From assembly GCF_000027125.1 (NCBI RefSeq), contig NC_017626.1: DNA of 64,000 nucleotides, one strand, 5' to 3'. The stretch comes from Escherichia coli 042. GTDB taxonomy: Bacteria; Pseudomonadota; Gammaproteobacteria; Enterobacterales; Enterobacteriaceae. How positions within the stretch are numbered: the stretch's first letter is position 1; each line of letters begins with the position of its first letter. Below the pieces are notes generated by a model. The model was not told where the DNA came from and searched no databases. It saw only the letters and a program-made list of their open reading frames with translations. The position numbers and the translations under genes are program-made. Positions 3,871 to 35,756 of the stretch are shown here, one piece after another.

Positions 3871-5337
3871 ATGAATACAATCGCCTCCGCTACGCTCCCG
3901 CATCATGTACACGCTCCACGCTACGATCGCCAGCAGTTGCAATCACGTATCGTTCATTTTGGCTTTGGAGCCTTTCACCGCGCTCATCAGGCGTTACTGA
4001 CCGATCGTGTGTTGAATGCCCAGGGCGGCGACTGGGGGATCTGTGAGATCAGCTTGTTCAGCGGCGATCAACTGATGAGCCAGCTCCGCGCACAGAACCA
4101 TTTATATACCGTGCTGGAGAAAGGTGCGGACGGCAATCAGGCGATAATTGTCGGTGCCGTTCACGAATGCCTGAATGCAAAACTGGATTCCTTAGCGGCA
4201 ATTATTGAGAAATTTTGCGAGCCACAGGTGGCAATTGTTTCCCTGACGATTACCGAAAAAGGCTATTGTATTGACCCGGCCACCGGTGCACTCGACACCA
4301 GCAATCTGCGGATTATTCACGATCTACAAACCCCTGAAGAACCTCACTCCGCACCGGGTATTCTCGTCGAAGCACTGAAACGCCGCCGTGAGCGCGGCCT
4401 TACACCGTTCACCGTGCTCTCCTGCGACAATATTCCCGACAATGGCCATGTGGTGAAAAACGCGGTGCTGGGAATGGCAGAAAAACGTTCGCCAGAACTC
4501 GCCGGGTGGATAAAAGAGCACGTCAGTTTTCCGGGAACTATGGTCGACCGTATTGTTCCGGCAGCAACCGACGAATCACTGGCGGAAATCAGCCAGCATC
4601 TGGGGGTGAATGATCCCTGCGCGATTAGCTGCGAACCGTTTATCCAGTGGGTGGTGGAAGATAACTTCGTCGCTGGGCGTCCTGCCTGGGAAGTCGCAGG
4701 TGTACAAATGGTGAATGATGTCCTGCCATGGGAAGAGATGAAACTGCGGATGCTTAATGGCAGCCACTCTTTTCTCGCTTATCTGGGTTACCTCTCAGGA
4801 TTCGCGCACATCAGTGATTGCATGCAGGATCGCGCATTTCGCCATGCCGCCAGAGCATTAATGCTGGATGAACAAGCGCCGACACTGCGAATTAAAGATG
4901 TCGATTTAACACAATATGCGGATAAGTTAATTGCACGTTTTGCTAACCCGGCGCTGAAACATAAGACCTGGCAAATCGCAATGGATGGTAGCCAGAAATT
5001 ACCGCAACGCATGCTGGCAGGTATTCGCATACATCTGGGGCGCGAAACGGACTGGTCGATGCTGGCATTAGGCGTTGCAGGCTGGATGCGTTACGTCAGC
5101 GGCGTTGATGATGCCGGAAATGCCATTGATGTTCGCGATCCGCTTAGCGATAAAATTCGCGAACTTGTTGCGGGCAGCAGCAGTGAACAACGCGTCACCG
5201 CCCTGCTTTCTCTGCGTGAAGTTTTCGGTGATGATCTGCCAGATAACCCGCATTTTGTGCAGGCCATCGAACAAGCCTGGCAACAAATCGTACAATTCGG
5301 CGCACATCAGGCGCTATTAAACACCCTCAAAATTTAA
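3871..5337 (+). CDS. yeiQ: mannitol-dehydrogenase-family oxidoreductase YeiQ
   Basis: 488 aa from the ATG at 3871 (track ORF starts at a GTG at 3862); sequence MNTIASATLPHHVHAPRYDRQQLQSRIVHFGFGAFHRAHQ... with a Rossmann-like GFGAFHRAH motif. Confidence 0.9.
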   Translation: MNTIASATLPHHVHAPRYDRQQLQSRIVHFGFGAFHRAHQALLTDRVLNAQGGDWGICEISLFSGDQLMSQLRAQNHLYTVLEKGADGNQAIIVGAVHECLNAKLDSLAAIIEKFCEPQVAIVSLTITEKGYCIDPATGALDTSNLRIIHDLQTPEEPHSAPGILVEALKRRRERGLTPFTVLSCDNIPDNGHVVKNAVLGMAEKRSPELAGWIKEHVSFPGTMVDRIVPAATDESLAEISQHLGVNDPCAISCEPFIQWVVEDNFVAGRPAWEVAGVQMVNDVLPWEEMKLRMLNGSHSFLAYLGYLSGFAHISDCMQDRAFRHAARALMLDEQAPTLRIKDVDLTQYADKLIARFANPALKHKTWQIAMDGSQKLPQRMLAGIRIHLGRETDWSMLALGVAGWMRYVSGVDDAGNAIDVRDPLSDKIRELVAGSSSEQRVTALLSLREVFGDDLPDNPHFVQAIEQAWQQIVQFGAHQALLNTLKI

Positions 5338-5454
5338 CGATTTCTGCGGTTAAAGCGGATGAAGCTCGCCTTCGTCCGCTCTCCCCTTCTCTTTTCTGCC
5401 TTTTTTAGCCAGGATTAACGCTCAGTTAACTTACCAGAGTATTGCGGAGCCGTT

Positions 5455-6441
5455 GTGACCAGGACCAACCTCATCACCGGTTTTCTCGGCAGCGGGAAAA
5501 CCACGTCGATTCTTCATCTGTTAGCCCATAAAGATCCCAACGAAAAATGGGCGGTACTGGTTAATGAATTTGGGGAAGTCGGAATTGATGGTGCTTTGCT
5601 CGCCGATAGCGGCGCATTGCTGAAAGAGATCCCCGGCGGCTGCATGTGCTGCGTTAATGGTTTACCCATGCAGGTAGGGTTGAATACCTTACTGCGTCAG
5701 GGAAAACCAGACCGCTTGTTGATAGAACCGACCGGGCTGGGTCATCCGAAACAGATCCTCGATCTCTTAACCGCGCCAGTCTATGAACCGTGGATAGATC
5801 TGCGCGCCACCTTGTGCATTCTCGATCCACGCCTGCTGCTGGACGAAAAAAGCGCCAGCAATGAAAACTTCCGTGACCAGCTGGCTGCCGCAGACATTAT
5901 TGTCGCCAATAAATCCGACCGTGCGACGCCCGAAAGTGAGCAAGCGCTACAGCGCTGGTGGCAGCAAAATGGTGGCGATCGACAATTAATTCACAGTGAG
6001 CATGGGAAAGTTGACGGTCATCTTCTGGATTTGCCGCGTCGCAATTTAGCCGAGTTGCCCGCCAGCGCCGCGCATTCTCATCAGCATGGCGTGAAAAAAG
6101 GGTTAGCAGCGTTAAGCCTGCCAGAGCATCAACGCTGGCGTCGCAGTCTGAACAGCGGGCAAGGATATCAGGCCTGCGGCTGGATATTCGACGCTGATAC
6201 GGTATTCGACACCATTGGCATTCTGGAATGGGCGCGACTTGCACCGGTAGAACGCGTCAAAGGCGTGCTGCGTATTCCCGAAGGGCTGGTGCGAATCAAC
6301 CGTCAGGGCGATGACCTGCACATTGAAACGCAAAACATTGCGCCACCGGACAGCCGTATTGAGCTGATTTCCAGCAGCGAAGCTGACTGGAATGCCTTGC
6401 AGAGCGCGCTGTTGAAGCTTCGTTTAGCGACTACCGCGTAA
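5455..6441 (+). CDS. yeiR: COG0523-family zinc-binding GTPase YeiR
   Basis: 328 aa, GTG start, P-loop GFLGSGKTT near the N-terminus and a CxCC metal motif (GGCMCCVNG). Confidence 0.9.
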   Translation: MTRTNLITGFLGSGKTTSILHLLAHKDPNEKWAVLVNEFGEVGIDGALLADSGALLKEIPGGCMCCVNGLPMQVGLNTLLRQGKPDRLLIEPTGLGHPKQILDLLTAPVYEPWIDLRATLCILDPRLLLDEKSASNENFRDQLAAADIIVANKSDRATPESEQALQRWWQQNGGDRQLIHSEHGKVDGHLLDLPRRNLAELPASAAHSHQHGVKKGLAALSLPEHQRWRRSLNSGQGYQACGWIFDADTVFDTIGILEWARLAPVERVKGVLRIPEGLVRINRQGDDLHIETQNIAPPDSRIELISSSEADWNALQSALLKLRLATTA

Positions 6442-6479
6442 GGTTGCCTGCGTTTTTCAGTAAGATAATTAGAGAAAAT

Positions 6480-7193
6480 ATGATTAAAAATTTGCCGCAA
6501 ATAGTGTTGTTGAATATTGTCGGCCTCGCGCTGTTTCTTTCCTGGTATATTCCCGTTAATCATGGATTCTGGTTGCCGATTGATGCGGATATTTTTTATT
6601 TCTTTAATCAGAAACTGGTCGAAAGTAAGGCCTTTTTGTGGCTGGTTGCATTGACCAACAATCGCGCTTTCGACGGTTGTTCACTGCTGGCGATGGGAAT
6701 GTTGATGCTGAGTTTCTGGCTGAAAGAAAACGCCCCTGGCAGACGACGTATCGTGATTATTGGTCTGGTCATGCTATTAACTGCAGTGGTATTAAACCAG
6801 CTGGGTCAGGCATTAATTCCTGTAAAACGGGCCAGCCCAACATTGACTTTTACCGATATTAACCGCGTCAGCGAACTGCTCTCTGTCCCCACGAAAGATG
6901 CCTCACGAGATAGCTTTCCCGGCGATCATGGTATGATGCTGCTTATTTTTTCGGCATTCATGTGGCGTTATTTCGGCAAAGTTGCAGGCCTTATCGCCCT
7001 TATTATTTTTGTGGTTTTTGCGTTTCCCAGAGTAATGATTGGCGCACACTGGTTTACTGACATCATTGTCGGTTCGATGACCGTGATATTGATCGGTTTG
7101 CCCTGGGTGTTGCTGACGCCATTAAGTGATCGATTAATCACCTTTTTTGACAAATCACTACCGGGAAAAAACAAACATTTCCAAAACAAATAA
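6480..7193 (+). CDS. lpxT: lipid A 1-diphosphate synthase / undecaprenyl-pyrophosphate phosphatase LpxT (YeiU)
   Basis: 237 aa from the internal ATG, MIKNLPQIVLLNIVGLALFLSWYIPVNHGFW...; PAP2-type membrane protein; synteny. Confidence 0.88.
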   Translation: MIKNLPQIVLLNIVGLALFLSWYIPVNHGFWLPIDADIFYFFNQKLVESKAFLWLVALTNNRAFDGCSLLAMGMLMLSFWLKENAPGRRRIVIIGLVMLLTAVVLNQLGQALIPVKRASPTLTFTDINRVSELLSVPTKDASRDSFPGDHGMMLLIFSAFMWRYFGKVAGLIALIIFVVFAFPRVMIGAHWFTDIIVGSMTVILIGLPWVLLTPLSDRLITFFDKSLPGKNKHFQNK

Positions 7194-24119: not shown

Positions 24120-25364
24120 ATGGCAAGAAAGGCGACCCCACTCACCACCACACAGATCAAAGCAGCTAAACCAGCGGAAAAAGAATACACCTTACAGGAT
24201 GGCGGCGGGCTTTTTCTCGTCATTAAGCCATCTGGTTCGAAACTATGGCGATTCAACTACTATCGACCATCGAACAAAAAACGAACAATCATTAGTTTGG
24301 GATCGCTCGATGAAGTCTCCCTGGCTGATGCCAGAAAACGCCGTAGCGAGTACAGGACGTTAATTGCGTCAGGGATTGACCCACAGCATCACGAGCGGCA
24401 AAAACGCGAAGCAGAGGCCAGAAGACAGGGCAACACGTTCGAAAATGTGGCCGCATCGTGGTACGAAATGAAAAAAAACCAGAATCTCGCCCACAATACG
24501 ATCAAGGACATCTGGCGCTCGCTAGAGAAATATGTATTCCCGTATATCGGAAACACACCGATAGATACTCTCACCGCTCGCCGCTTTGTTGAGATACTCA
24601 CGCCCATCAAGACACGTGGCAACCTGGAAACACTGAAACGCGTTTTACAGCGCATCAATGAAGTGATGGATTTTGCTGCCAACAGTGGACTGATTGACAT
24701 CAACACCGCTGCGAACGTCCGCAAGGCATTCCCTTCCCCCACCAAAAAACACATGCCAACCATCCGACCAGAACAACTACCGCAGCTAATGCACGATTTA
24801 TCGATCGCCAGCATAGAACGGCAAACCAGATTGCTGATTGAGTGGCAGTTGTTAACCGCAACCCGTCCAGCCGAAGCCTCCGCCGCACGGTGGGAAGAAA
24901 TCAACCTTGATGCGGCAACATGGACGATACCAGCCGGACGCATGAAGATGCGCCGTGATCATGTGATCCCTCTTTGCGCTCAGGCGATGGCAGTGCTTGA
25001 AGCCATGAAGCCGATTAGCGCACGAAGGGAGCATGTTTTCCCAAGTCTTAAAAATCCAGTGCAACCAATGAGCAGCCAGACAGCAAACGCAGCATTACGG
25101 CGAATGGGTTACACTGGTGTACTGGTATCTCACGGGCTACGCGCCATATTCAGCACAGCGGCGAACGAAGAAGGATTTGAGCCGGACGTAATCGAGGCCG
25201 CACTCGCACACGTGGACACGAACGAAGTTAGACGGGCATACAACCGAAGCAACTACCTGGAAAAACGTAAAGTGTTAATGTGCTGGTGGGGTGATTTTGT
25301 GGAAGCAGCCTCAACCGGAACAACCATCGCCAGCGGGCACAGGGGATTACGCGGAATAAAATAA
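24120..25364 (+). CDS. int: P4-family tyrosine integrase
   Basis: 414 aa; N-terminal arm-binding-type region (KEYTLQDGGGLFLVIKPSGSKLWRFNYY...), C-terminal catalytic region with HGLRAIFST and a tyrosine near the end (RAYNRSNY); adjacent to a tRNA gene in the same orientation. Confidence 0.85.
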   Translation: MARKATPLTTTQIKAAKPAEKEYTLQDGGGLFLVIKPSGSKLWRFNYYRPSNKKRTIISLGSLDEVSLADARKRRSEYRTLIASGIDPQHHERQKREAEARRQGNTFENVAASWYEMKKNQNLAHNTIKDIWRSLEKYVFPYIGNTPIDTLTARRFVEILTPIKTRGNLETLKRVLQRINEVMDFAANSGLIDINTAANVRKAFPSPTKKHMPTIRPEQLPQLMHDLSIASIERQTRLLIEWQLLTATRPAEASAARWEEINLDAATWTIPAGRMKMRRDHVIPLCAQAMAVLEAMKPISARREHVFPSLKNPVQPMSSQTANAALRRMGYTGVLVSHGLRAIFSTAANEEGFEPDVIEAALAHVDTNEVRRAYNRSNYLEKRKVLMCWWGDFVEAASTGTTIASGHRGLRGIK

Positions 25365-25377
25365 AATATTTAAAAAA

Positions 25378-25417
25378 TTATTGGTTCCTAATTGGTACCA
25401 ATTTGGAGCCAATTTGT
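25378..25417. promoter_or_regulatory. operator-like palindrome cluster in the int-alpA intergenic region
   Basis: ttattggttcctaattggtaccaatttggagccaatttg contains the perfect 14-bp palindrome aattggtaccaatt (25390-25403) flanked by CCAATT/AATTGG half-sites, in an AT-rich region upstream of alpA. Confidence 0.4.
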
Positions 25418-25616
25418 GTCTCTTTACTGTCTCATTTTGAGAAATATTTAAAATTCTTTTTATGTTAGAAAATTAAAAAATAACCAATCACATAACTCTT
25501 ATTAAATAATTCTTGACTTGCTTTTTTATAGATTTGTATTCTTTTTATATGTTTTTACATGTTTACCGTCATTTTCATTCAAAAAGCGGTATTTTACTGT
25601 CTATAGGAGAAATAAG

Positions 25617-25808
25617 ATGAGGGCTATTCTTTTACGACCAGAGGTCAAGGCCTTGCTACGCATTAAATCTGATTCAACCCTAACGGAGATGGTTAACAAA
25701 GGCGGGTTCCCCAAAGGATTCCGTATCGGGCTGCGTCGCATTGGCTGGTATGAAGATGAGGTACTCGCCTGGTTGAAAGAACGTGAGAGAGAAACTCGTG
25801 AAGCATAA
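25617..25808 (+). CDS. alpA: AlpA-family phage transcriptional regulator / excisionase-like HTH protein
   Basis: 63 aa from the ATG at 25617 with an AGGAGA ribosome-binding site; MRAILLRPEVKALLRIKSDSTLTEMVNKGGFPKGFRIGLRRIGWYEDEVLAWLKERE has the AlpA-like pattern (...IG.R.IGW.E.EV..WL). Confidence 0.7.
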   Translation: MRAILLRPEVKALLRIKSDSTLTEMVNKGGFPKGFRIGLRRIGWYEDEVLAWLKERERETREA

Positions 25809-26266
25809 GTGTGATTAACGCTGGCCTGATTACTATCAAGCAACAAAACAATTAAGAGAGAACATTATAAATACTGGCAAAAATGCCCAAACAGGGGCAG
25901 GTTTTCGTTCAACCATAAAAAATTATGGCTGATGTTATTATTCAGTTCAAACCGTACGAACGAATTAATTGAACTAATAGCACTTCCGTTTTAAACGGAA
26001 ACGTACAATCGCATAGCTTAAACGACAAAAGAAATATGTTGCTTACGAATAAAACAAAGGCGACCGCAGAGGGTCGCCAGAAGGCATATATTAAACTTGA
26101 ATGCATCGCCAACAATGCCATATTTCCGGCTGGTGAGCAATGTGATTTGTGTGGTGGGCACACCTTCAACACATCCGACCACATGAGCAAGAAAACGGGA
26201 TATACTCACCAAATCCCTTATAAAACGGGGATCGGGATTACCACCCCGCTGGAGTTAACGGCGATA

Positions 26267-26290
26267 CAGACGCGCCACGCGTCTTTTTTT
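26267..26290 (+). terminator. candidate intrinsic terminator inside the alpA-icd gap
   Basis: cagacgcgccacgcgtc followed by T7 (GC stem gacgcg/cgcgtc, short loop), preceded by further stem-loops at 26058-26079 and 26226-26248. Confidence 0.5.
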
Positions 26291-26454
26291 GTATCGACGC
26301 ACACGCACGCCTTATCAATGGTGGGCTGTATGGGGCTGACTTCGGTCAGGCTGGTTTCCGTTAACACCAGTTGTGGTAACCCTGTACAGTCCACCGCCAG
26401 CGAGCTTACCACCTCCTGCGGTGGGTATATCCCAACGTTAACGGAGGCTGCCAA

Positions 26455-26694
26455 ATGGCTACTATCCCTGCCCTCGCACATACTCAGAACGCCTTTATCT
26501 GGCGCTTTATCATCGTTAATCCGAGTGATTCCCGCGTCGTTCACGTCGTGGCGTCAACCGAACAGGAAGCGCGTAACCGTTGTCCGTCCGGTTGTGTTGC
26601 CGTATTCGCTGCCCGTATTCGTCAGGGGGTAAGTCATGCTCAAGCGATTCCAGATAACCGCACGCGCTGTAAATCATCAAGGCCACGTTATTGA
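26455..26694 (+). CDS. Icd-like (host cell division inhibitor-like) small phage protein
   Basis: 79-aa ORF with a GGAGG ribosome-binding site 8 nt upstream; MATIPALAHTQNAFIWRFIIVNPSDSRVVHVVASTEQEARNRCPSGCVAVFAARI resembles the Icd-like small-protein family as I remember it. The 3' end overlaps the next ORF by 58 nt in another frame, so the true C-terminus is uncertain. Confidence 0.5.
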   Translation: MATIPALAHTQNAFIWRFIIVNPSDSRVVHVVASTEQEARNRCPSGCVAVFAARIRQGVSHAQAIPDNRTRCKSSRPRY

Positions 26695-26821
26695 TATTCG
26701 GCAAAACGTGAACGCCACCAGCGTTAATGCAGCTATAGCAATATTGAAAGAAGAGTTAATCGGCTGTAGGTTCACGCAGGTGATGATCCGTGCCGTAGTT
26801 GAAGTGTCGACTGTTCATTAA
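26636..26821 (+). CDS. hypothetical small phage-island protein
   Basis: 61-aa ORF with a strong GGGGGTAAG ribosome-binding site; MLKRFQITARAVNHQGHVIDIRQNVNATSVNAAIAILKEELIG...; no function recognised. Confidence 0.45.
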   Translation: MLKRFQITARAVNHQGHVIDIRQNVNATSVNAAIAILKEELIGCRFTQVMIRAVVEVSTVH

Positions 26822-26860
26822 TCTCATTAATACAGCTTTAACAAAAACGTAATTCGACAA

Positions 26861-27148
26861 ATGAAAGCAAAAAATTCTGGCTTTACTGCCAGCGGTAAAA
26901 CTCGTCCTAAATTCATGCACGGCGATATTTACCGCGATAAATACGGCAGCACGGTAATGATTAAGGGCGTGAGTGAACGACGCATTACCTACCGCCGTGA
27001 AGGATACAAATATGACTGCGTGATGCCTGTTTATCAGTTCCAGCGTGATTTTACGCTGGTGGATCATCGTGAAACCGTAAATCAGAACCGTGCAGCAAGA
27101 TACATCCGCAAAATCTGCGAAATGATGGTTACTGGGGGCAAGAAATGA
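26861..27148 (+). CDS. hypothetical protein, translationally coupled to the primase gene
   Basis: 95-aa ORF whose TGA stop overlaps the ATG of the downstream 712-aa ORF (ATGA); basic protein; no recognisable domain. Confidence 0.4.
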   Translation: MKAKNSGFTASGKTRPKFMHGDIYRDKYGSTVMIKGVSERRITYRREGYKYDCVMPVYQFQRDFTLVDHRETVNQNRAARYIRKICEMMVTGGKK

Positions 27149-29283
27149 AACGCGCACCGAATTTAAAGCACCAGCCGAAAGACAAAATGACGGAGGTGAT
27201 TATCTTTGCGGGTAGTGATGCCTGGGCACATGCGAAAGAGTGGAGCGAATGGGCCGGAAAGCATATTGCGGCAGATGATACACATCCAGTTATTCTTGGA
27301 CCGGAACAACTGGCGAGTCTGGCAGACACGCAAATCATCGACAAAGGGCGCTATTACGTGCGCGTTTATCGTGCTGGTGAAATATCAGAGCAGCACCTTA
27401 CACAGATAGCGACACTGCTTGCAGTGGCGGGTGTGAAGGAGGCGCGTTGCTACCGCAGCTTTGTTGATCAGCAGCCGGAGGACTGGACACCGCGCATGGC
27501 TGGACTGAAGGATGATGCGGAACGCGGTAACAGTCTGGTGATCAACCTTCCGGCGAAGACAAATTTCACCGGAAATTATGATGACGAATTAAAGCCTCGT
27601 GTTGAAAGTCGCGTCGATGGTGTTTTCTGGGTAACGCCCAAAGTGGACAAGCAGTCAGGCGAAATTATCCGGCCTGAGACGTGGTTATGTTCTCCGCTTG
27701 AACTACTGGGAACAGGAACAATCGGCAAAGAGCATTACCGCGTGATGCGCTGGAAAAAACCAGCAAACCATGAGGTCATTACAATGGCGGTCCCGTGCGG
27801 AGGCATTGGTGACCGTGACGGCTGGCGGTTGCTGAAAGACCACGGCCTTAACGTGACGACCAACGGCAAATACAGGGCTATCCTGGCTGACTGGATGCAG
27901 TTAAGCGGAAACCATGAGGAATGGCAGTTAAGCACAACAACGGGGTGGCATTTTGGTGCGTACATCATGCCGGATGGTTCGATCATCGGTGAATCAGAGA
28001 AACCCATCCTGTTTACCGGAAAAACTGCCGCTGTTAATGGCTATTCCGTGGCGGGAACAGCGGAGGGCTGGCGCGATACCGTGGCACGGCTGGCTGGTGG
28101 TAATCCGTCCATGATGCTGGGTGTGGCGGTATCGCTATCTGCACCATTAATCGGGCTGGTGGGTGCTGACGGCTTCGGGGTTCATCTTTTTGAGCAATCA
28201 TCAGCAGGTAAAACCACCACACAGAACATTGCATCAAGTTTATGGGGAGAGCCGGACGCGCAACGGCTGACCTGGTACGGAACGGCGTTAGGTATCGCCA
28301 ACGAGGCCGAAGCACATAATGACGGGCTGTTACCCCTGGATGAAATAGGCCAGGCCGGAAACGCACGGGAAGTGTCCACGTCGGCTTATACGCTGTTTAA
28401 CGGTTCGGGGAAATTACAGGGGGCGAAGGACGGCGGCAACAGGGAGATAAAACACTGGCGAACAGTGGCAATCAGTACCGGAGAAATGGACGTTGAAACA
28501 TTCCTCAAAAGTGAGGGGATAAAAGTCAAGGCTGGGCAGCTTGTCCGGTTGCTTAACGTGCCGATGGAGAAGTCCACGCAGTTTCACGAATACAGCACAG
28601 GAAAGGCGCACGCAGACGCGTTAAAGGATGCCTGGACAGCAAATCACGGGGCGGCAGGTCGTGAGTGGATTAAATGGCTAGCAGCCCACCAACAGGAGGC
28701 TAAGGACACGGTAAGGGCATGCCGTGAACGGTGGCGCAACCTGATACCGGAGAGCTACGGCGAACAGGTTCACCGCGTAGGGGAACGATTCGCCATACTG
28801 GAGGCCGCGCTTGTGCTGTCAGGCAATGTTACGGGCTGGGATGTTCAGGCGTGCCGTGATGCCATTCAGCATAACTTTAATGCCTGGGTGAAGGAGTTCG
28901 GCACGGGTAACAAGGAACACAGGCAGATTATTGAACAGGCAGAGGCATTTCTTACTGCCTACGGCATGAGCAGGTTTGCGCCTGTCAATTATGACCCTGC
29001 AAGCCTGCCGATTTCAGAACTGTACGGCTACAGGGAAAGCGAGGGGCGTTACGGTGAGCCTGTTTTGTTTTACGTCCTGCCGGAGCCATTTAAATCGCAT
29101 GTGGCGAAGGGATTTAACAAGGATGCCGTAGCAAGAGCCCTTCACGAAGCCGGAATGCTGAAAAAGCCAGCCAGCGGGGAAGGATGGCAAATCAGAACAC
29201 CACGTCTTAAGCACATGAAGGGGGCACGACTAAGGGTGTACGGCCTTTTACTTGCACAGGATCATGATGATGAAGGTGGTTAA
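27145..29283 (+). CDS. primase/helicase-like replication initiation protein (P4 alpha-like; P-loop NTPase core)
   Basis: 712-aa ORF; central Walker A-like FEQSSAGKTTTQN followed by acidic DE-type motifs (LPLDEIG); the size and the iterons immediately downstream fit a satellite replication protein. An alternative start at 27187 (MTEVIIFAG) is possible. Confidence 0.65.
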   Translation: MKRAPNLKHQPKDKMTEVIIFAGSDAWAHAKEWSEWAGKHIAADDTHPVILGPEQLASLADTQIIDKGRYYVRVYRAGEISEQHLTQIATLLAVAGVKEARCYRSFVDQQPEDWTPRMAGLKDDAERGNSLVINLPAKTNFTGNYDDELKPRVESRVDGVFWVTPKVDKQSGEIIRPETWLCSPLELLGTGTIGKEHYRVMRWKKPANHEVITMAVPCGGIGDRDGWRLLKDHGLNVTTNGKYRAILADWMQLSGNHEEWQLSTTTGWHFGAYIMPDGSIIGESEKPILFTGKTAAVNGYSVAGTAEGWRDTVARLAGGNPSMMLGVAVSLSAPLIGLVGADGFGVHLFEQSSAGKTTTQNIASSLWGEPDAQRLTWYGTALGIANEAEAHNDGLLPLDEIGQAGNAREVSTSAYTLFNGSGKLQGAKDGGNREIKHWRTVAISTGEMDVETFLKSEGIKVKAGQLVRLLNVPMEKSTQFHEYSTGKAHADALKDAWTANHGAAGREWIKWLAAHQQEAKDTVRACRERWRNLIPESYGEQVHRVGERFAILEAALVLSGNVTGWDVQACRDAIQHNFNAWVKEFGTGNKEHRQIIEQAEAFLTAYGMSRFAPVNYDPASLPISELYGYRESEGRYGEPVLFYVLPEPFKSHVAKGFNKDAVARALHEAGMLKKPASGEGWQIRTPRLKHMKGARLRVYGLLLAQDHDDEGG

Positions 29284-29308
29284 TCTCTCGCGTGTAGGTT
29301 TAAAAACT

Positions 29309-29443
29309 CTTGTCCCACCTGTCCCAACCTGTGAGAAACACACATAACATACTGAATTATATTGGGTAATATCAGAAAAAGTGGGACAAGAGCGGGACAA
29401 GTTAAGGTGATTTTGGGACAAGTTAGGAGCATTTTGGGACAAG
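29309..29443. repeat. iteron cluster 1 (GGGACAAG repeats), putative origin of replication
   Basis: Inverted copies CTTGTCCC at 29309-29316 and ctgtccca at 29319-29326, an AT-rich spacer, then four direct GGGACAAG copies at 29383-29390, 29394-29401, 29415-29422 and 29436-29443; immediately downstream of the primase gene. Confidence 0.6.
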
Positions 29444-29519
29444 TCAGCAGGCGTTATTTTTTGCCTGGCTGGTGGACATTAAAAATCCAACCAACATTTA
29501 AAACCGGAGAGCAGACAAT

Positions 29520-29945
29520 ATGACGGCACAAATATCAGCTTACGGGCGGTTGGTGGCTGACCCGCAGTTAAAAACCACCAGCAAGGGAACACCAATGGCG
29601 CTGGTGAGTATGGCTGTTCCCCTTCCGTGCAGTCAGGCATATGACGGAACAGCGACGATGTGGTTATCCGTCCTGGCGTTTGGCAGACAGGCCGATGCAC
29701 TGGCAAAACACCAGAAAGGCGAACTGGTGAGCATGGCGGGTAACATGCAGATAAGCCAGTGGACAGACCAGAACGGGGAAATGCGGCAGGGCTGGCAGGT
29801 CATCGCAGACAGCGTAATCAGTGCGCGAACCGTGCGACCAGGAGGCAGGAAAGGACAGCAAGGGCAGGCTACTGACGCACTGAACAGAACAAAGCAGCAG
29901 ACGGGCCAGCAGGATGACCCGTATGAGGACGAAATACCATTTTAA
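29520..29945 (+). CDS. ssb: single-stranded DNA-binding protein (SSB-like, OB fold)
   Basis: 141 aa; SSB-like layout with conserved aromatic positions, a Gly/Gln-rich linker and the acidic tail ...DDPYEDEIPF that resembles the E. coli SSB C-terminal DDDIPF. Confidence 0.75.
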   Translation: MTAQISAYGRLVADPQLKTTSKGTPMALVSMAVPLPCSQAYDGTATMWLSVLAFGRQADALAKHQKGELVSMAGNMQISQWTDQNGEMRQGWQVIADSVISARTVRPGGRKGQQGQATDALNRTKQQTGQQDDPYEDEIPF

Positions 29946-29980
29946 CTGCCAGTGGATTCACTAACAGAGGTTAACAAATA

Positions 29981-30517
29981 ATGACTACACTGACTATTAG
30001 CAGAAAACCGAAAGGCATTTACGGCATACCACAGAAAAAGACACAGACGACACAGCAGCAGGATAAAACCACATCAGCGCATAAAGTGATACCCGGCAAT
30101 CAGAACGCACAGCAGAGCCGCAAACAGAAGCCCACAGGGGCGACACCGTGGCGGCATATGACCAAACGCCAGGGCAAAAACCGCAGGCGCGTTAACCGTC
30201 TTATTGAACTATGGCCTGAATTATTCAGCCTGGAATCACCGAAGCCGCTTAAGGTAGGAATATTTGAAGACCTGATACAGGATATTGCCGTCAGGGCGCT
30301 GGCTTTTGGGTCAGGGGCATTACGTGCGGCGCTAGCATCTTATGCTCATTCTCCGCGTTATTACCGTGCCTTAATGGCTGGTGGCGTGCGTTACGATCTG
30401 AATAGCCAGCCATGCGGCGAGGTGACACAACAGGAACAGCAGGACGCGGAAGCACGACTGATGGCACTGAAAGAGAAGCGCAAACGTAAGTCGAACAAGG
30501 AGCAAGCTGGCGTATGA
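29981..30517 (+). CDS. FinO/ProQ-family RNA-chaperone-like protein
   Basis: 178 aa; basic Q/K-rich N-terminus, then LIELWPELFSLESPKPLKVGIFEDL...RYYRALMAGGVRYDLNSQPCGEV, which resembles the FinO/ProQ N-terminal domain signature; assignment from memory only. Confidence 0.5.
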   Translation: MTTLTISRKPKGIYGIPQKKTQTTQQQDKTTSAHKVIPGNQNAQQSRKQKPTGATPWRHMTKRQGKNRRRVNRLIELWPELFSLESPKPLKVGIFEDLIQDIAVRALAFGSGALRAALASYAHSPRYYRALMAGGVRYDLNSQPCGEVTQQEQQDAEARLMALKEKRKRKSNKEQAGV

Positions 30518-30798
30518 GTATGATTCACGACAGCAAAGCGGAAGATCTGGAGGCTAAAGGCCTGTACCGGAGAGCGGCAGCCCGATGGGCTGAGGTCATG
30601 CAACAGGTGAACACCGATAAGGAGCGCGAACAGGCAGTAAAGCGTCGCGCGAAATGTATCCACAAGGCAGCACGTTCGCCCGTCATGCTGGATAATTTCG
30701 GGGGCTTGAGAGAGGCAGCAAACCGCACACAGGCGGATATGGGGATAGAAATCGCAAAATCTGTCTGGCGGAACTACCAGACAGACAAGGTTTTATAG
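30514..30798 (+). CDS. PerC-family transcriptional regulator-like protein
   Basis: 94 aa; AEDLEAKGLYRRAAARWAEVM matches the PerC/Pch-type motif (AE.LE..GLWRRAA.RW..VM); start overlaps the previous stop (ATGA coupling). Confidence 0.55.
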   Translation: MSMIHDSKAEDLEAKGLYRRAAARWAEVMQQVNTDKEREQAVKRRAKCIHKAARSPVMLDNFGGLREAANRTQADMGIEIAKSVWRNYQTDKVL

Positions 30799-30854
30799 TG
30801 GCAGTTCTGCATTATTTTTTGTGTTATTGAGTTGTAGAGCGTTTCAGGAGTTTT

Positions 30855-31064
30855 TTGAATCACATGAACGTTTCGCTGGTGGATATTCTTGACAAGTTGC
30901 AGCCAGGCCGACGCGTGCCAGCTCGCCGCAGTGCCTGGCATCTTCCGTACATCGTCTTTCTCGAACGGCGCGGAAACGATTTGATTGCGTTGAATCCCGT
31001 CACAAAGGATAGCGTTACGCTATCTCCTGAGAGTCTACTAGCCACAGACTGGGAGTACTGCTAA
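30855..31064 (+). CDS. hypothetical protein
   Basis: 69-aa ORF with a CAGGAG ribosome-binding-like site upstream; last ORF before the ~0.9 kb non-coding iteron region; no recognisable motif. Confidence 0.3.
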   Translation: MNHMNVSLVDILDKLQPGRRVPARRSAWHLPYIVFLERRGNDLIALNPVTKDSVTLSPESLLATDWEYC

Positions 31065-31597
31065 ACACAAACGCATCGAGGGTGCTGGCGTGTTGCCAGC
31101 CCCACCCCCTCCGAAATGATCCCCCAAAAAGTGCAAAATGATCCCCCATTAACGAACAGAAAACAAACAAAGAGCAACAAATAATCATTATTTACAATTC
31201 TTGACAAAAACACCCCCTATTTATAACCCTACCAAATTTAAAATTACATCTACAAAACAATAAGTTACAAAATCAGCAACGGATCATTTCGGAAAAAACG
31301 GTTAGTCCCTTTTTCGAAAAGGGATCATTTTGTTGCTTAAACTCATATGCGGATTACATATCAATACGCTAGTGATAGCCGTTCTGGAATGCCACAGAAA
31401 CGCGCTGTAATCGATTCTGGCGCAATTAGCTGTGCTAGGTAATGATTTACCTATCTGGGGATGTTGCGCACGTCTGGATTGCGTTACCACCGAAGATTGT
31501 GCGCATATGGTGGCTGTTACGGTGGCCTCCCGACAACGCAAAATTGCGGCGGCACAGTCGGTTTACCGCGCTAACACGGCTTGATTCACTCGCTCGA

Positions 31598-31717
31598 CTT
31601 GTCCCACCTCCCCCCCCAACTTGTCCCAAAACAGCCTAGACTTGTCCCACCTTACCTAATTTATTTCTAACAAAATCAATTTGTTAGGTGCTGGTGGGAC
31701 AGGTGGGACGGGTGGGA
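31598..31717. repeat. iteron cluster 2 (CTTGTCCC x3 and GGTGGGAC x3 flanking an AT-rich spacer), putative second cis-replication site
   Basis: CTTGTCCC at 31598-31605, 31618-31625 and 31640-31647; inverted GGTGGGAC(A/G)G at 31692-31699, 31701-31708 and 31710-31717; followed by (TA)n at 31729-31740. Confidence 0.6.
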
Positions 31718-31998
31718 CGGGTGGTTTTGTATATATATATACGAAAAATTGCATTCAGGAGGGGGGCGAAATTCCTGCAATCCATTACTTATGGAACTGT
31801 CCGCCCCGTCAAATTTTTACGCCCGCGCAATTAAAAAAATGCGTCACGCAGGTGGGCATGATGCCGATATGCTTGTCGGGTTCAGCTTTTTAAGGCGGCT
31901 GTAGATGTCAGGTTATCCGTGCTCATCCACCAGCCAGCTTCATAGCGGATAGCCGGAAAATGGTAACGGTTAAAGCTGTACATTTTTGCAGCAAATCA

Positions 31999-32023
31999 TT
32001 TTAGTTATACGTTTAGATATACG
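31999..32023. repeat. right boundary direct repeat (putative attR)
   Basis: ttttagttatacgtttagatatacg, 23 of 25 identical to 24034-24058. Confidence 0.5.
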
Positions 32024-32103
32024 ATTTCAAAACTCAATTAATCTACATCTTTAAAATCATGCAGTTACAGAATCAATTAAACTACTCTCGTGGCCAAAAA
32101 TCC

Positions 32104-32137
32104 CCAAAAAAACCAACCGTAAAGGTTGGTTTTTTTA
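32104..32137 (-). terminator. rho-independent terminator downstream of yejO
   Basis: aaaaaaaccaaccgtaaaggttggttttttt: hairpin with flanking A and T runs. Confidence 0.7.
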
Positions 32138-32197: not shown

Positions 32198-34789
32198 TCA
32201 GAACGTCCAGACCACACCCGCCTGAGTATTCCACGGCGATTCTACCCCTGCGCCATTGCCATAACTGACAGACAAATGACCGCTTAACGTCGGGGTAAAC
32301 GATGACCTTATCCCAGCCTGATAAACGCCACTGGTTCCAGCCACATCATTATTAAATTTGCCATCGTCATTAACTTTCACCTGGTTAGAATCGGCGTATT
32401 CCTGACGCACGGCGGCTTTCAGCCAGGGTTCCAGCGTCGTACCGTTTTGCAGGTCCATGTGATAGCTTACCGCCGTTCCCGCTTCAGCCCGTAATATGCG
32501 GGTATTTCCCACATCCGCGCGCATGCCGTTTGATAACGTGTAGTCCTGACCATCAGTGGTAAAGCCGGTAAAGGCCAGATAGGGTCTAACACTCCACAAT
32601 CCGTCAACCCAACGGAACCCGCTCTCGACATGAGCACCCGCGCCGTTACTATTGTAATCGCCAAACGCTGTTGCCCCATTACTCATCTTGCCATGGATGG
32701 TGTTGGCAAAACGGTCAACTTTCACCACTCCATCAACATAGGCACCGTTCTGATGCTCCCAACCGGCATAAGCCCCCAGGGTGTAGCTATCGATATTGCC
32801 TTTGCCGCCGCGATCAAAACCAATATCAGAATGAGAGTAACCAAAGAACAAGCCGCGAATTGTGCTGCTTTCTTCACGGGAGAAACGGCTATCGATACCG
32901 AGCGTCAGGCCCGTCAATGTTTGCTCAAAGCCAGCTCCCGCATCAGTGGTCACGTTGTTGCGGGTGTTAATTGCCGAACTCCACATCGCCGTATCGTAAT
33001 TAACGCCTTTTACGCTACCAAGACGCTCACGCACGGTGTCCAGTTCTGCATCAAATACCAGCGGTTGTGCTGCCGCCATATTCAGCACATCAGTGGTTGA
33101 AGGGGTAATTTGCGCGCGATTCTCTGCCAGACTCCAGCTATGGTTGCCATTATCCAGCAAGGTATATTCATACGTACCGATATCAACAACGCCTCCGGCA
33201 TTGCCCAACGTAAATGCAGCATCACCGCCGCCCGTTGTTACCAGTGTAAGGCTATCTCCTGCTGCCGGGCTGGCACCGGTGTCCGTCACGAATATTTTGA
33301 AATCACCTGTTGCCTGACCGGTGACGTTGAGCTGATCGCTCTGATGATTAGCCATATCGGTACGCATATAAAAATTGCCGTTTCCCGACAGGGTATTGGT
33401 GGTCAACGTAATGAAATTTTCCGCACTTGCCGTCACTGATGAACGAGTCACTGGCTCAGCCATCATAATCACATTTGCGCCGGACATCGCAAGGTTGGCT
33501 AAGTTGAGGCGAGTGTTTTGGTTCGTCGTACTGTTATCGGCAATGATGGTCCATGCGCTATTTTCGAGCGAAACATCCGCTTTGCTGGTATCCACGGCAC
33601 CATGCGTTCTAAAAGAAGCGCCCTCAGAAACCACGACCTTACCCACCAACATAGCGGGTGCATAATTTATTTGCGGCTTCATGACCTCAAGAATGCCATC
33701 ATTCCCTCTGACTGAAACGTTAACCATTGTGCCAGCCCAGACATTAGCGCGACCATTGTTGATAACCATATTTTCAGAGATGGCTTTAGAGGAATACGTT
33801 ATACTTCCATTCTGATCTGATCGACCGAGATCATATACCGCATTTGCCTGCACTCTCGTACCAGTATCCTTTCCCAGCGATTGCATAGTGGCATGCTCAT
33901 CAAGGATAGTATCAATGGCCTGCGTGTCCTCCATAACAATGAGCCCGGAACCATCATCCAGTTCATAATTTTTTGACACACCATCTTTTATACTAAATTG
34001 GCCTTTACTGTTTGTACCACTCACTTCCAGCGCATTCGTTGAGACAATTAATTGTCCGCCTGCTTTTTTATCAACGCCAGTTGCAGTCCCGCCATCCATA
34101 ACCTCCAGTAAGCCGCCACTATCCACAGTGGTATTATAAGCGAAGTCATTTTCTTCAACTCGCAAACTTCCGCCGTTTTCCAACAGCATATTATTAGCAA
34201 TACCATCCTTGATATCGAACTGACCGAGACGGTTTGTTCCGAATACCTCCATGGCCCGCGTGGTTGTTTTAATCGCACCGCCGGCTTTCTGATCTACCGC
34301 AAATGCTAATCCCCCCTCTTTAACCTCCAGTAATCCTCCCTTTTCGATAGCGGCAAAGACGGTAATCCCATCTTTTTCAATAATTAAGCGCCCGCCTTTA
34401 ATGGTGGTATCATTCGCTGCGCCATAAACCTGTAGCACACCATTATTAAGGGTAGTCTGGTTTGCCGCGCCACCCATTTGAACAATTTGATAACCGTCAT
34501 TTAATACTGAGTATTCTGCGGTGCCATTCATTTCAATGTACTGATACCCTCCGTTAATTTCAGTATTACTACTTACACCAAATTCTTTTATATGCTGTTC
34601 TCCGCCAGGATTGATTTTCGTATTATTGGCGGTCCCATAAACCAGCTGGATATCTTTTTCCAGGACAACACCATCAACTGTCTCACCATACTCAACAGTT
34701 GATGCCAATGCTATGGGTGAATATAACGCTGTAGCCACCAGAACAGATATTGCGGAACGACAAAGAGAAACAGAACCAGATTGATGCAT
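32198..34789 (-). CDS. yejO: AIDA-I-type autotransporter adhesin YejO (apparently intact)
   Basis: 863-aa ORF; signal peptide, Gly/Asn/Thr-rich repetitive passenger (repeats of ...GG.L.V..GG.A.....), C-terminal beta-barrel ending in the aromatic residues ...VVWTF; located between proL and narP. Confidence 0.85.
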   Translation of the reverse strand: MHQSGSVSLCRSAISVLVATALYSPIALASTVEYGETVDGVVLEKDIQLVYGTANNTKINPGGEQHIKEFGVSSNTEINGGYQYIEMNGTAEYSVLNDGYQIVQMGGAANQTTLNNGVLQVYGAANDTTIKGGRLIIEKDGITVFAAIEKGGLLEVKEGGLAFAVDQKAGGAIKTTTRAMEVFGTNRLGQFDIKDGIANNMLLENGGSLRVEENDFAYNTTVDSGGLLEVMDGGTATGVDKKAGGQLIVSTNALEVSGTNSKGQFSIKDGVSKNYELDDGSGLIVMEDTQAIDTILDEHATMQSLGKDTGTRVQANAVYDLGRSDQNGSITYSSKAISENMVINNGRANVWAGTMVNVSVRGNDGILEVMKPQINYAPAMLVGKVVVSEGASFRTHGAVDTSKADVSLENSAWTIIADNSTTNQNTRLNLANLAMSGANVIMMAEPVTRSSVTASAENFITLTTNTLSGNGNFYMRTDMANHQSDQLNVTGQATGDFKIFVTDTGASPAAGDSLTLVTTGGGDAAFTLGNAGGVVDIGTYEYTLLDNGNHSWSLAENRAQITPSTTDVLNMAAAQPLVFDAELDTVRERLGSVKGVNYDTAMWSSAINTRNNVTTDAGAGFEQTLTGLTLGIDSRFSREESSTIRGLFFGYSHSDIGFDRGGKGNIDSYTLGAYAGWEHQNGAYVDGVVKVDRFANTIHGKMSNGATAFGDYNSNGAGAHVESGFRWVDGLWSVRPYLAFTGFTTDGQDYTLSNGMRADVGNTRILRAEAGTAVSYHMDLQNGTTLEPWLKAAVRQEYADSNQVKVNDDGKFNNDVAGTSGVYQAGIRSSFTPTLSGHLSVSYGNGAGVESPWNTQAGVVWTF

Positions 34790-35108
34790 TGAGCTTTCAT
34801 CCTATGAAATTAATTGCTGTTAAAAGCATTGGGTAAAGAAAATACCCATAGCTCCATACCCGGAGTCAGTTTTTAAAAACTGTTTAAAGAAATGCACAAG
34901 TATTGTGATTGATTTTTTAGTTGTTTTTCTTGATGAGAAGCTGATGCAAAATTCCGTCTTTATAATGAAAATGATGCCAAAGCGAACGACAAGGTTGTAG
35001 TTTTCACTACATGTCCATACATAAAATGGGGTAACATTCACGCGCCTGGTAGCGTTACCAACGCTACGCTCAAACATAATGATTCTAATAAAACCTCAGG
35101 AGACTACT

Positions 35109-35756
35109 ATGCCTGAAGCAACGCCTTTTCAGGTGATGATTGTGGATGATCATCCACTTATGCGACGCGGTGTTCGTCAGTTACTGGAGCTTGATCCTGG
35201 CTTTGAAGTGGTCGCCGAAGCGGGCGACGGCGCGAGCGCGATCGATCTGGCGAATAGACTGGATATCGACGTGATCTTGCTGGATCTCAATATGAAAGGT
35301 ATGAGTGGCCTGGATACCCTCAATGCCTTGCGCAGGGATGGCGTTACCGCGCAAATTATTATCCTGACCGTATCAGATGCCTCCAGCGATGTCTTTGCGC
35401 TGATAGACGCAGGCGCAGACGGTTATCTGTTGAAAGATAGCGACCCGGAAGTGTTGCTGGAAGCGATTCGTGCCGGAGCGAAAGGCAGCAAAGTCTTTAG
35501 CGAACGCGTCAATCAGTACTTACGTGAACGTGAAATGTTTGGCGCGGAAGAAGATCCCTTCAGCGTGCTGACGGAGCGCGAGCTGGATGTTCTGCACGAG
35601 CTGGCACAGGGGCTGTCAAATAAACAGATTGCCTCGGTGTTGAATATTTCCGAGCAGACAGTAAAAGTACACATTCGCAATCTGCTGCGTAAACTCAATG
35701 TCCGCTCACGCGTGGCGGCCACCATTCTGTTCCTGCAACAACGCGGGGCACAATAA
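35109..35756 (+). CDS. narP: nitrate/nitrite response regulator NarP
   Basis: 215 aa from the internal ATG MPEATPFQVMIVDDHPLMRRG...; receiver domain plus LuxR-type HTH. Confidence 0.93.
   Translation: MPEATPFQVMIVDDHPLMRRGVRQLLELDPGFEVVAEAGDGASAIDLANRLDIDVILLDLNMKGMSGLDTLNALRRDGVTAQIIILTVSDASSDVFALIDAGADGYLLKDSDPEVLLEAIRAGAKGSKVFSERVNQYLREREMFGAEEDPFSVLTERELDVLHELAQGLSNKQIASVLNISEQTVKVHIRNLLRKLNVRSRVAATILFLQQRGAQ

Follow-up and report, generated by a model that had tools for sequence, protein, structure and literature searches.

The yejO locus and the adjoining island

The window, the whole stretch of 64,000 nucleotides of Escherichia coli 042 DNA that we analysed, carries yejO at 32198..34789 on the minus strand. 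In the ORF listing, the gene is a single open reading frame that begins with ATG and encodes 863 amino acids followed by a stop codon, with no internal stops; its assignment draws on the reading frame itself, Pfam and NCBIfam domains, alignments and an exact match of the protein, which is deposited at NCBI as "autotransporter YejO" (CBG35266.1 and others). Given its length and its domain scores, such an open frame is far beyond chance. The protein ends in AGVVWTF, and an aromatic C-terminus is typical for outer-membrane beta-barrels. Around the gene, yejM and, downstream of yejM, a tRNA-Pro gene lie on one side and narP, divergent from yejO, on the other, and this slot matches the canonical yejO position of annotated E. 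coli genomes. The neighbour that fixes the identity of the locus is narP (35109..35756, plus strand; 215 amino acids according to the RefSeq annotation of relatives), beyond which follow ccmH, dsbE and ccmF. The divergent yejO-narP intergenic region (34790..35108, unstranded) measures 319 nt, has a G+C content of 36% and is 99% conserved among four strains; the conservation is confounded, however, as the region also holds the narP promoter.

Downstream of yejO, the window differs from most E. coli strains in carrying an integrative island of 8,169 bp (8.2 kb; 23916..32084, plus strand) between the tRNA-Pro gene and yejO, in agreement with the first-pass annotation, which had placed a mobile element directly beside the gene. 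The integration site is the tRNA-Pro gene (GGG anticodon; 23837..23913, plus strand), and the cargo comprises an integrase, an AlpA-like regulator, Ash, an Icd-like protein, DUF4222, a 712-aa DUF927 protein, SSB, ProQ/FinO and PerC. An imperfect att repeat flanks the island, with one copy (CTCTCGTGCCGACCAAA) at 23899-23915 and the other (CTCTCGTGGCCAAA) at 32085-32098, and from the end of the attR core it is 99 nt to the yejO stop codon; in island-free strains, the tRNA-Pro gene and the stop codon are 101 nt apart, and the only effect of the island on the slot is the lengthening of this gap. Between attR and the yejO stop lies a terminator-like hairpin (32105..32137, called on the minus strand in the scan) with a 14-pair stem and flanking runs of A and T. 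The hairpin is also present in island-free strains and, judging from the A-run upstream of it, could act in both directions.

Two further genomes, L008 and L010, have flanks 99.98-99.99% identical to those of the window, a precise empty att site and an identical YejO. The empty site and the identical protein in such closely similar strains indicate that the gain of the island was recent and unconnected with the state of yejO. An influence of the island on yejO was considered and rejected: the same protein is found without the island, and neither the hairpin nor the promoter side has changed. For integration, the tRNA-Pro/yejO junction is a recognised hotspot; in Shigella flexneri 1c, for example, the gtrIC region has used it (PMC4924310).

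Predicted domain architecture and relatives

By curated models, YejO would be classed as a classical type Va autotransporter, with a predicted order of signal peptide, AIDA-type passenger, pertactin-type junction and barrel. Three Pfam families score above their curated cut-offs: the AIDA stalk repeats (PF16168; 172.7 bits over two stretches), Pertactin (PF03212; 152.7 bits at residues 431-555, cut-off 22) and the Autotransporter beta-domain (PF03797; 157.7 bits at residues 602-841, cut-off 26). In NCBIfam, the autotransporter barrel model TIGR01414 reaches 370.6 bits (E 1.1e-110, cut-off 16), and TIGR04415, a 19-residue strand-loop-strand repeat, reaches 64.7 bits over three stretches (cut-off 30). 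The run from signal peptide through repetitive passenger to C-terminal barrel that had been read from the translation alone was thus recovered by the models, the signal peptide as a prediction.

The predicted Sec signal peptide covers residues 1-29 (34703..34789, minus strand), with the cut at MHQSGSVSLCRSAISVLVATALYSPIALA/ST, and was recognised from the sequence and a hydropathy scan: the heuristic found R11, a hydrophobic core spanning residues 12-22 with a maximum of 2.5 (Kyte-Doolittle, 9-residue window), A-L-A at positions -3 to -1, and then Ser30. Behind it, the passenger extends over about residues 30-560 (33110..34702, minus strand), as delimited by AF2, Foldseek and phmmer, and contains two tandem 74-aa modules of the AIDA type at residues 165-238 and 239-312 (33854..34297, minus strand), identical at 31 of 74 positions (42%). 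The modules were revealed by protein alignment with a 789-aa allele and not otherwise; Tandem Repeats Finder reported no tandem repeats in yejO. The pertactin-type junction, or autochaperone region, is placed by PF03212 at residues 431-555 (33125..33499, minus strand), and the C-terminal translocator barrel at residues 602-863 (32201..32986, minus strand), up to the final Phe, by PF03797, TIGR01414 and homology to BrkA and Vag8. In the AF2 model, built on an alignment of 13 sequences, residues 1-27 are disordered and residues 30-500 form a beta-solenoid, which is regular and mostly above pLDDT 90 over residues 30-440; for residues 505-863, the pLDDT is below 30 and the barrel is not resolved, as an alignment this shallow is insufficient for the translocator.

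Among known proteins, Ag43 (Flu), an E. coli autotransporter that mediates self-association, is the top match to the passenger in both structure (Foldseek, 7koh, E 2.1e-20, ~25% identity) and sequence (phmmer, E 6.3e-37). The order of the Foldseek hits in the PDB was Ag43 (7koh, 7ko9 and 4kh3), TibA (4q1q, E 1.6e-9) and then SPATE and pertactin beta-helices. The type Va architecture of Ag43 is overall like that of YejO, but its locus is different, and YejO fails the Ag43/Cah equivalog NF033177, scoring 133.6 bits where the cut-off is 1200. With the glycosylated AIDA-type adhesins AIDA-I and TibA, YejO has in common the stalk repeats of PF16168 and TIGR04415 and a match to the TibA fragment; on the other hand, its passenger is much shorter, the genes beside it are narP and those of the island, with no heptosyltransferase gene, and with the AIDA-I model NF033176, for which the cut-off is likewise 1200, it scores 73.2 bits. 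The label "AIDA-like" in the first-pass annotation therefore fits the type of repeat and the fold, as seen in PF16168 and the Ag43 and TibA matches, but not membership of the AIDA-I family, and by its scores, its neighbours and the lack of upstream GATC sites YejO is neither Ag43 nor AIDA-I. The junction and the barrel, for their part, are homologous to those of BrkA, Vag8 and pertactin of Bordetella: the C-terminal 300 residues match the BrkA barrel (3qq2) with E 3.8e-19 and Vag8 with E 2e-26, and Vag8 aligns to residues 378-860 with E 4.4e-36. The N-terminal passengers of the Bordetella proteins, however, are unlike the AIDA/Ag43-type passenger of YejO.

Intact alleles, the K-12 insertion and decay in other lineages

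Compared with yejO genes that are annotated as intact and encode 863 amino acids, the locus forms a single gap-free alignment covering 100% of its length, so that neither a frameshift nor a premature stop separates it from its homologues; the best match, in GF60, has 98.8% nucleotide identity and 8 amino acid differences. RefSeq holds 2592-nt, non-pseudo genes named "autotransporter YejO" in GF60, O157:H7 MB9-1, BL21, NRZ88308, MS6198 and H9, and the start and stop of these six are the same as in the window; an intact 863-aa gene is likewise annotated in many wild strains. The identical protein occurs on 117 contigs, and its 90%-identity cluster has 16,859 members; a draft assembly, GCA_036599305.1, is 99.996% identical to the window across 22.6 kb, the island included. 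More distantly, an intact 862-aa orthologue with 76% amino acid identity lies in the same narP-yejO-yejM slot of a genome whose flanking genes are 90-91% identical to those of the window and which represents a different species-level lineage of Escherichia. The signal-peptide N-terminus is conserved in this orthologue and in all the intact alleles compared. For four intact alleles, pairwise dN/dS ranges from 0.11 to 0.29 over the whole gene, from 0.04 to 0.17 in the translocator and from 0.08 to 0.35 in the passenger; these values indicate purifying selection, so that YejO would be used under some conditions.

The copy in K-12 (b2190) occupies the same yejM - tRNA-Pro - yejO - narP slot, and E. 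coli YejO proteins of 863 amino acids there are 97-99% identical to ours. Published accounts describe K-12 yejO as a pseudogene that IS5 splits close to the start (PMC11005336, PMC11677980), and in the K-12 derivative ER1821R the gene is flagged as a pseudogene with the N-terminus missing, its two pieces lying on either side of an IS5 transposase gene. At the junctions, a 1195-bp IS5 with duplicated ATAA follows coding nucleotide 63 (codon 21-22), inside the signal peptide; in-silico excision of IS5 and one ATAA restores an open reading frame of 863 amino acids, and the repaired protein differs from that of the window by 22 amino acid substitutions, of which 20 fall in the passenger. In the window, the ATAA that is the target of IS5 in K-12 (coding nucleotides 64-67, codons 22-23; 34723..34726, unstranded) is unoccupied and present in a single copy, and no IS5 terminal repeat was found anywhere in the 64 kb with up to two mismatches allowed. 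The first-pass annotation had described K-12 yejO as a pseudogene disrupted by IS5 and had set against it an 863-aa frame with neither transposase nor IS ends; annotation, junctions and literature bear out the description, leaving no intact K-12 gene to set beside ours, and the alignments and the end scan bear out the rest.

To estimate how common the intact state is, 5426 complete E. coli genomes were surveyed; 4281 of them carry 80% or more of the yejO locus, and a 100-nt probe across the yejO::IS5 junction of K-12, a match being at least 80% of its length, was found in 356, the listed examples being laboratory strains derived from K-12, ER1709 and J53 among them. A sample of 40 records, drawn at regular intervals from the match ranking and rough rather than a census, gave 16 in which the gene was interrupted, truncated, deleted or reduced in length in frame; among the other 24, five were verified as intact. 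The K-12 insertion accounted for three rows, and two rows had in common a nonsense allele in the barrel, W789*. One row had a split yejO with an internal length increase of 471 nt, two had the 789-aa in-frame allele that has lost one 74-aa module, eight had short remnants with 40-47% of the query covered (the one inspected, from ST131, was frameshifted), and in one yejO was wholly deleted beside IS1. In the literature, yejO has been described as missing from ST131 (PMC5654935). Because 16 of these 40 rows are not intact, the fully intact 863-aa form can be present in at most about 60% of complete genomes, as far as so rough a sample goes. The lesions cited where antagonistic selection is considered are the K-12 IS5, W789*, the ST131 decay, the IS1 deletion, an internal duplication and the loss of a module. 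A relative of 935 amino acids (P0016) was also considered as a three-module allele and rejected: it has about residues 473-550 duplicated and comes from one metagenome assembly, possibly as an artefact.

Intact yejO is thus common, and the presence of an intact orthologue in the same slot between flanks of about 90% identity makes it ancestral; the K-12 lesion is an oddity of one lineage. With the intact state this common and the K-12 junction confined to 356 of the 5426 genomes, the contrast between the two strains is informative on K-12 and not on E. coli 042. Independent inactivation in many lineages, for its part, shows the gene to be dispensable; in certain niches, what it encodes may matter little or even carry a cost. 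The gene and its name, the intact form in most strains other than K-12 and the IS5 lesion are all already known from public annotation and literature.

Export, expression and possible function

We are highly confident that the locus holds the ordinary chromosomal yejO in its intact ancestral form, encoding a predicted type Va autotransporter, that the IS5 insertion belongs to K-12 only and that the island is independent of both. From knowledge of the type Va family, we infer a course in which the predicted 29-residue signal peptide would direct YejO to Sec export, and the C-terminal ~260 residues would enter the outer membrane as a beta-barrel, assisted by BAM. The passenger of ~530 residues would be threaded outward from C to N, its folding nucleated by the pertactin-type junction, and would form a right-handed beta-helix of the Ag43/TibA/AIDA-I type kept on the cell surface, where it would most likely serve in adhesion or cell-cell aggregation. 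As for the contrast with K-12, IS5 was gained in codon 21-22 by the K-12 lineage alone, and the island entered tRNA-Pro independently, leaving yejO, the terminator and the promoter side untouched. Open reading frame, domains and purifying selection are all compatible with yejO of E. coli 042 encoding a functional adhesin, which it may do, as a statement of capacity only. Functional studies of YejO were not found in the searchable literature; what came up there were papers that employ the K-12 pseudogene as a neutral site for deletion, work on IS5 and surveys of gene presence.

Many E. coli autotransporter adhesin genes are silent in laboratory culture, and yejO may be another: intact but cryptic, silent in ordinary conditions through, for example, silencing of its AT-rich 5' region by nucleoid proteins, so that no YejO would be displayed. 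We rate this as quite possible, if falling somewhat short of an even chance. It is in keeping with the low G+C content of the upstream region and of the 34500-34999 bin (37%), and with the promoter scan, which gave no match to the sigma-70 consensus in the yejO-narP intergenic region. Furthermore, across a K-12 compendium that gathers 3,376 sets of RNA-seq data, yejO comes about 4501st among about 4510 genes (PMC10392735); the copy measured is the one split by IS5, however, and we take the rank as a weak sign of a quiet promoter. Against silence speak the purifying selection on intact alleles, which implies that the protein is made and useful in some condition, and, if less clearly given the narP promoter within it, the strong conservation of the intergenic region. 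A cryptic, conditionally expressed yejO is a live possibility, and one compatible with the identification of the gene. A phase switch of the Ag43 Dam/OxyR type, or slippage tracts, were considered as well and rejected: neither the 319 nt upstream of yejO nor its first 300 nt contain a GATC site, no such switch is apparent upstream, and the gene is free of homopolymer runs that reach 7-8 nt.

Within the reading of yejO as an intact autotransporter gene, the main role of the protein could lie outside adhesion and aggregation, for instance in resistance to serum or complement as with BrkA and Vag8. These two are the closest solved relatives of its C-terminal half, Vag8 over the long alignment and BrkA on the barrel, but the likeness resides in the junction and barrel, which are common to the whole family, whereas the N-terminal passenger matches Ag43, TibA and the AIDA repeats in both sequence and model; such a role we consider improbable. 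Even less can be said for a frame that is open yet functionally dead, a pseudogene in waiting with damaging missense changes or a defective signal peptide. The repeated loss of yejO in other lineages and the single Arg in the n-region of the signal peptide may hint at it, but the N-terminus is conserved across the intact alleles and the 76%-identical orthologue, the protein is no more than 8-22 substitutions away from the other intact alleles compared, at a dN/dS far below 1, and it recurs unchanged on 117 contigs, all of which makes a dead product very improbable.

A more far-reaching proposal is that YejO is a genus-wide, syntenic, selectively kept and uncharacterised Ag43-like adhesin, that its recurrent loss reflects antagonistic selection on an exposed antigen or receptor, and that the allele of the 042 lineage measurably aids aggregation or colonisation. 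Taken as a whole, we consider this unlikely, if slightly less so than a principal role in serum resistance. K-12 is a poor reference for the yejO locus, and YejO itself is a fairly conserved, uncharacterised surface protein that is easily tested, with intact, truncated and module-deleted alleles existing in nature.

Divergence and loss of yejO

An intact, syntenic orthologue of yejO (window 32198-34789, minus strand), 862 aa long, is present in a more distant Escherichia genome (positions 4001-6589 of the comparison locus L011), sharing 76% identity with the window copy at the protein level and 82–86% at the DNA level, against 90–91% for the flanking ccm and yejM genes of the same genome; the rate of change is thus higher in yejO than in the genes around it. 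As the sequences of five loci from other genomes (L004, L006, L016, L017 and L018) show, the gene has been inactivated independently in many lineages. In ST131 O25b:H4, it is reduced to a frameshifted remnant, and in strain A37 it is split by an internal length increase of 471 nt; strains 673 and CH4804 have the nonsense change W789* (TGG to TGA) in common, while strain C21 carries an IS1-associated deletion of the gene that also truncates the adjacent island.

The passenger contains two 74-aa modules (residues 165-312; window 33854-34297), identical to each other at 31 of 74 positions. The YejO alleles of strains CAVP819 and KBN10P04869 are 789 aa long, that is, 74 aa shorter, and alignment of the former places the missing stretch, one module in length, at residues 168-241. 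The 789- and 863-aa forms represent natural, in-frame variation in the length of the beta-helix.

Lineage sampling and the narP start

The collection of 5426 complete E. coli genomes seems to lack the window's own lineage: its top match reaches only 98.8–99.3% identity, in yejO as well as in narP-ccm, yet two other assemblies, the public draft GCA_036599305.1 and the NCTC assembly LR134238.1, are 99.8–99.996% identical to the window. The accession CBG35266.1, a record of the exact YejO protein of the window, would point to enteroaggregative strain 042. For the divergent neighbour narP, mechanical ORF calling gave 225 aa, with a start 10 codons upstream (window 35079-35108) of the annotated one; this start is a trivial artefact of ORF calling, and all RefSeq relatives annotate a protein of 215 aa with its ATG at 35109.

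The island at tRNA-Pro

At the 3' end of tRNA-Pro lies an integrase-led island of 8.2 kb (window 23899-32098), found over at least 80% of its length in only 52 of the 5426 genomes; near-isogenic strains without it retain a precise empty att site. It encodes an integrase, AlpA-like, Ash, Icd-like, DUF4222, DUF927, SSB, ProQ/FinO and PerC proteins, none of its genes was recognisable as a capsid or packaging gene, and it has the look of a satellite of the P4-like or PICI-like kind. Counting its complement as well, the 64-kb window contains eight copies of the 8-mer GGGACAAG, every one inside the island and in one of two tight clusters, one directly 3' of the DUF927 gene (29309-29443) and the other at the gene-poor right end (31598-31648). 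The arrangement is iteron-like, and the paired clusters may echo the two-site ori/crr layout of P4.
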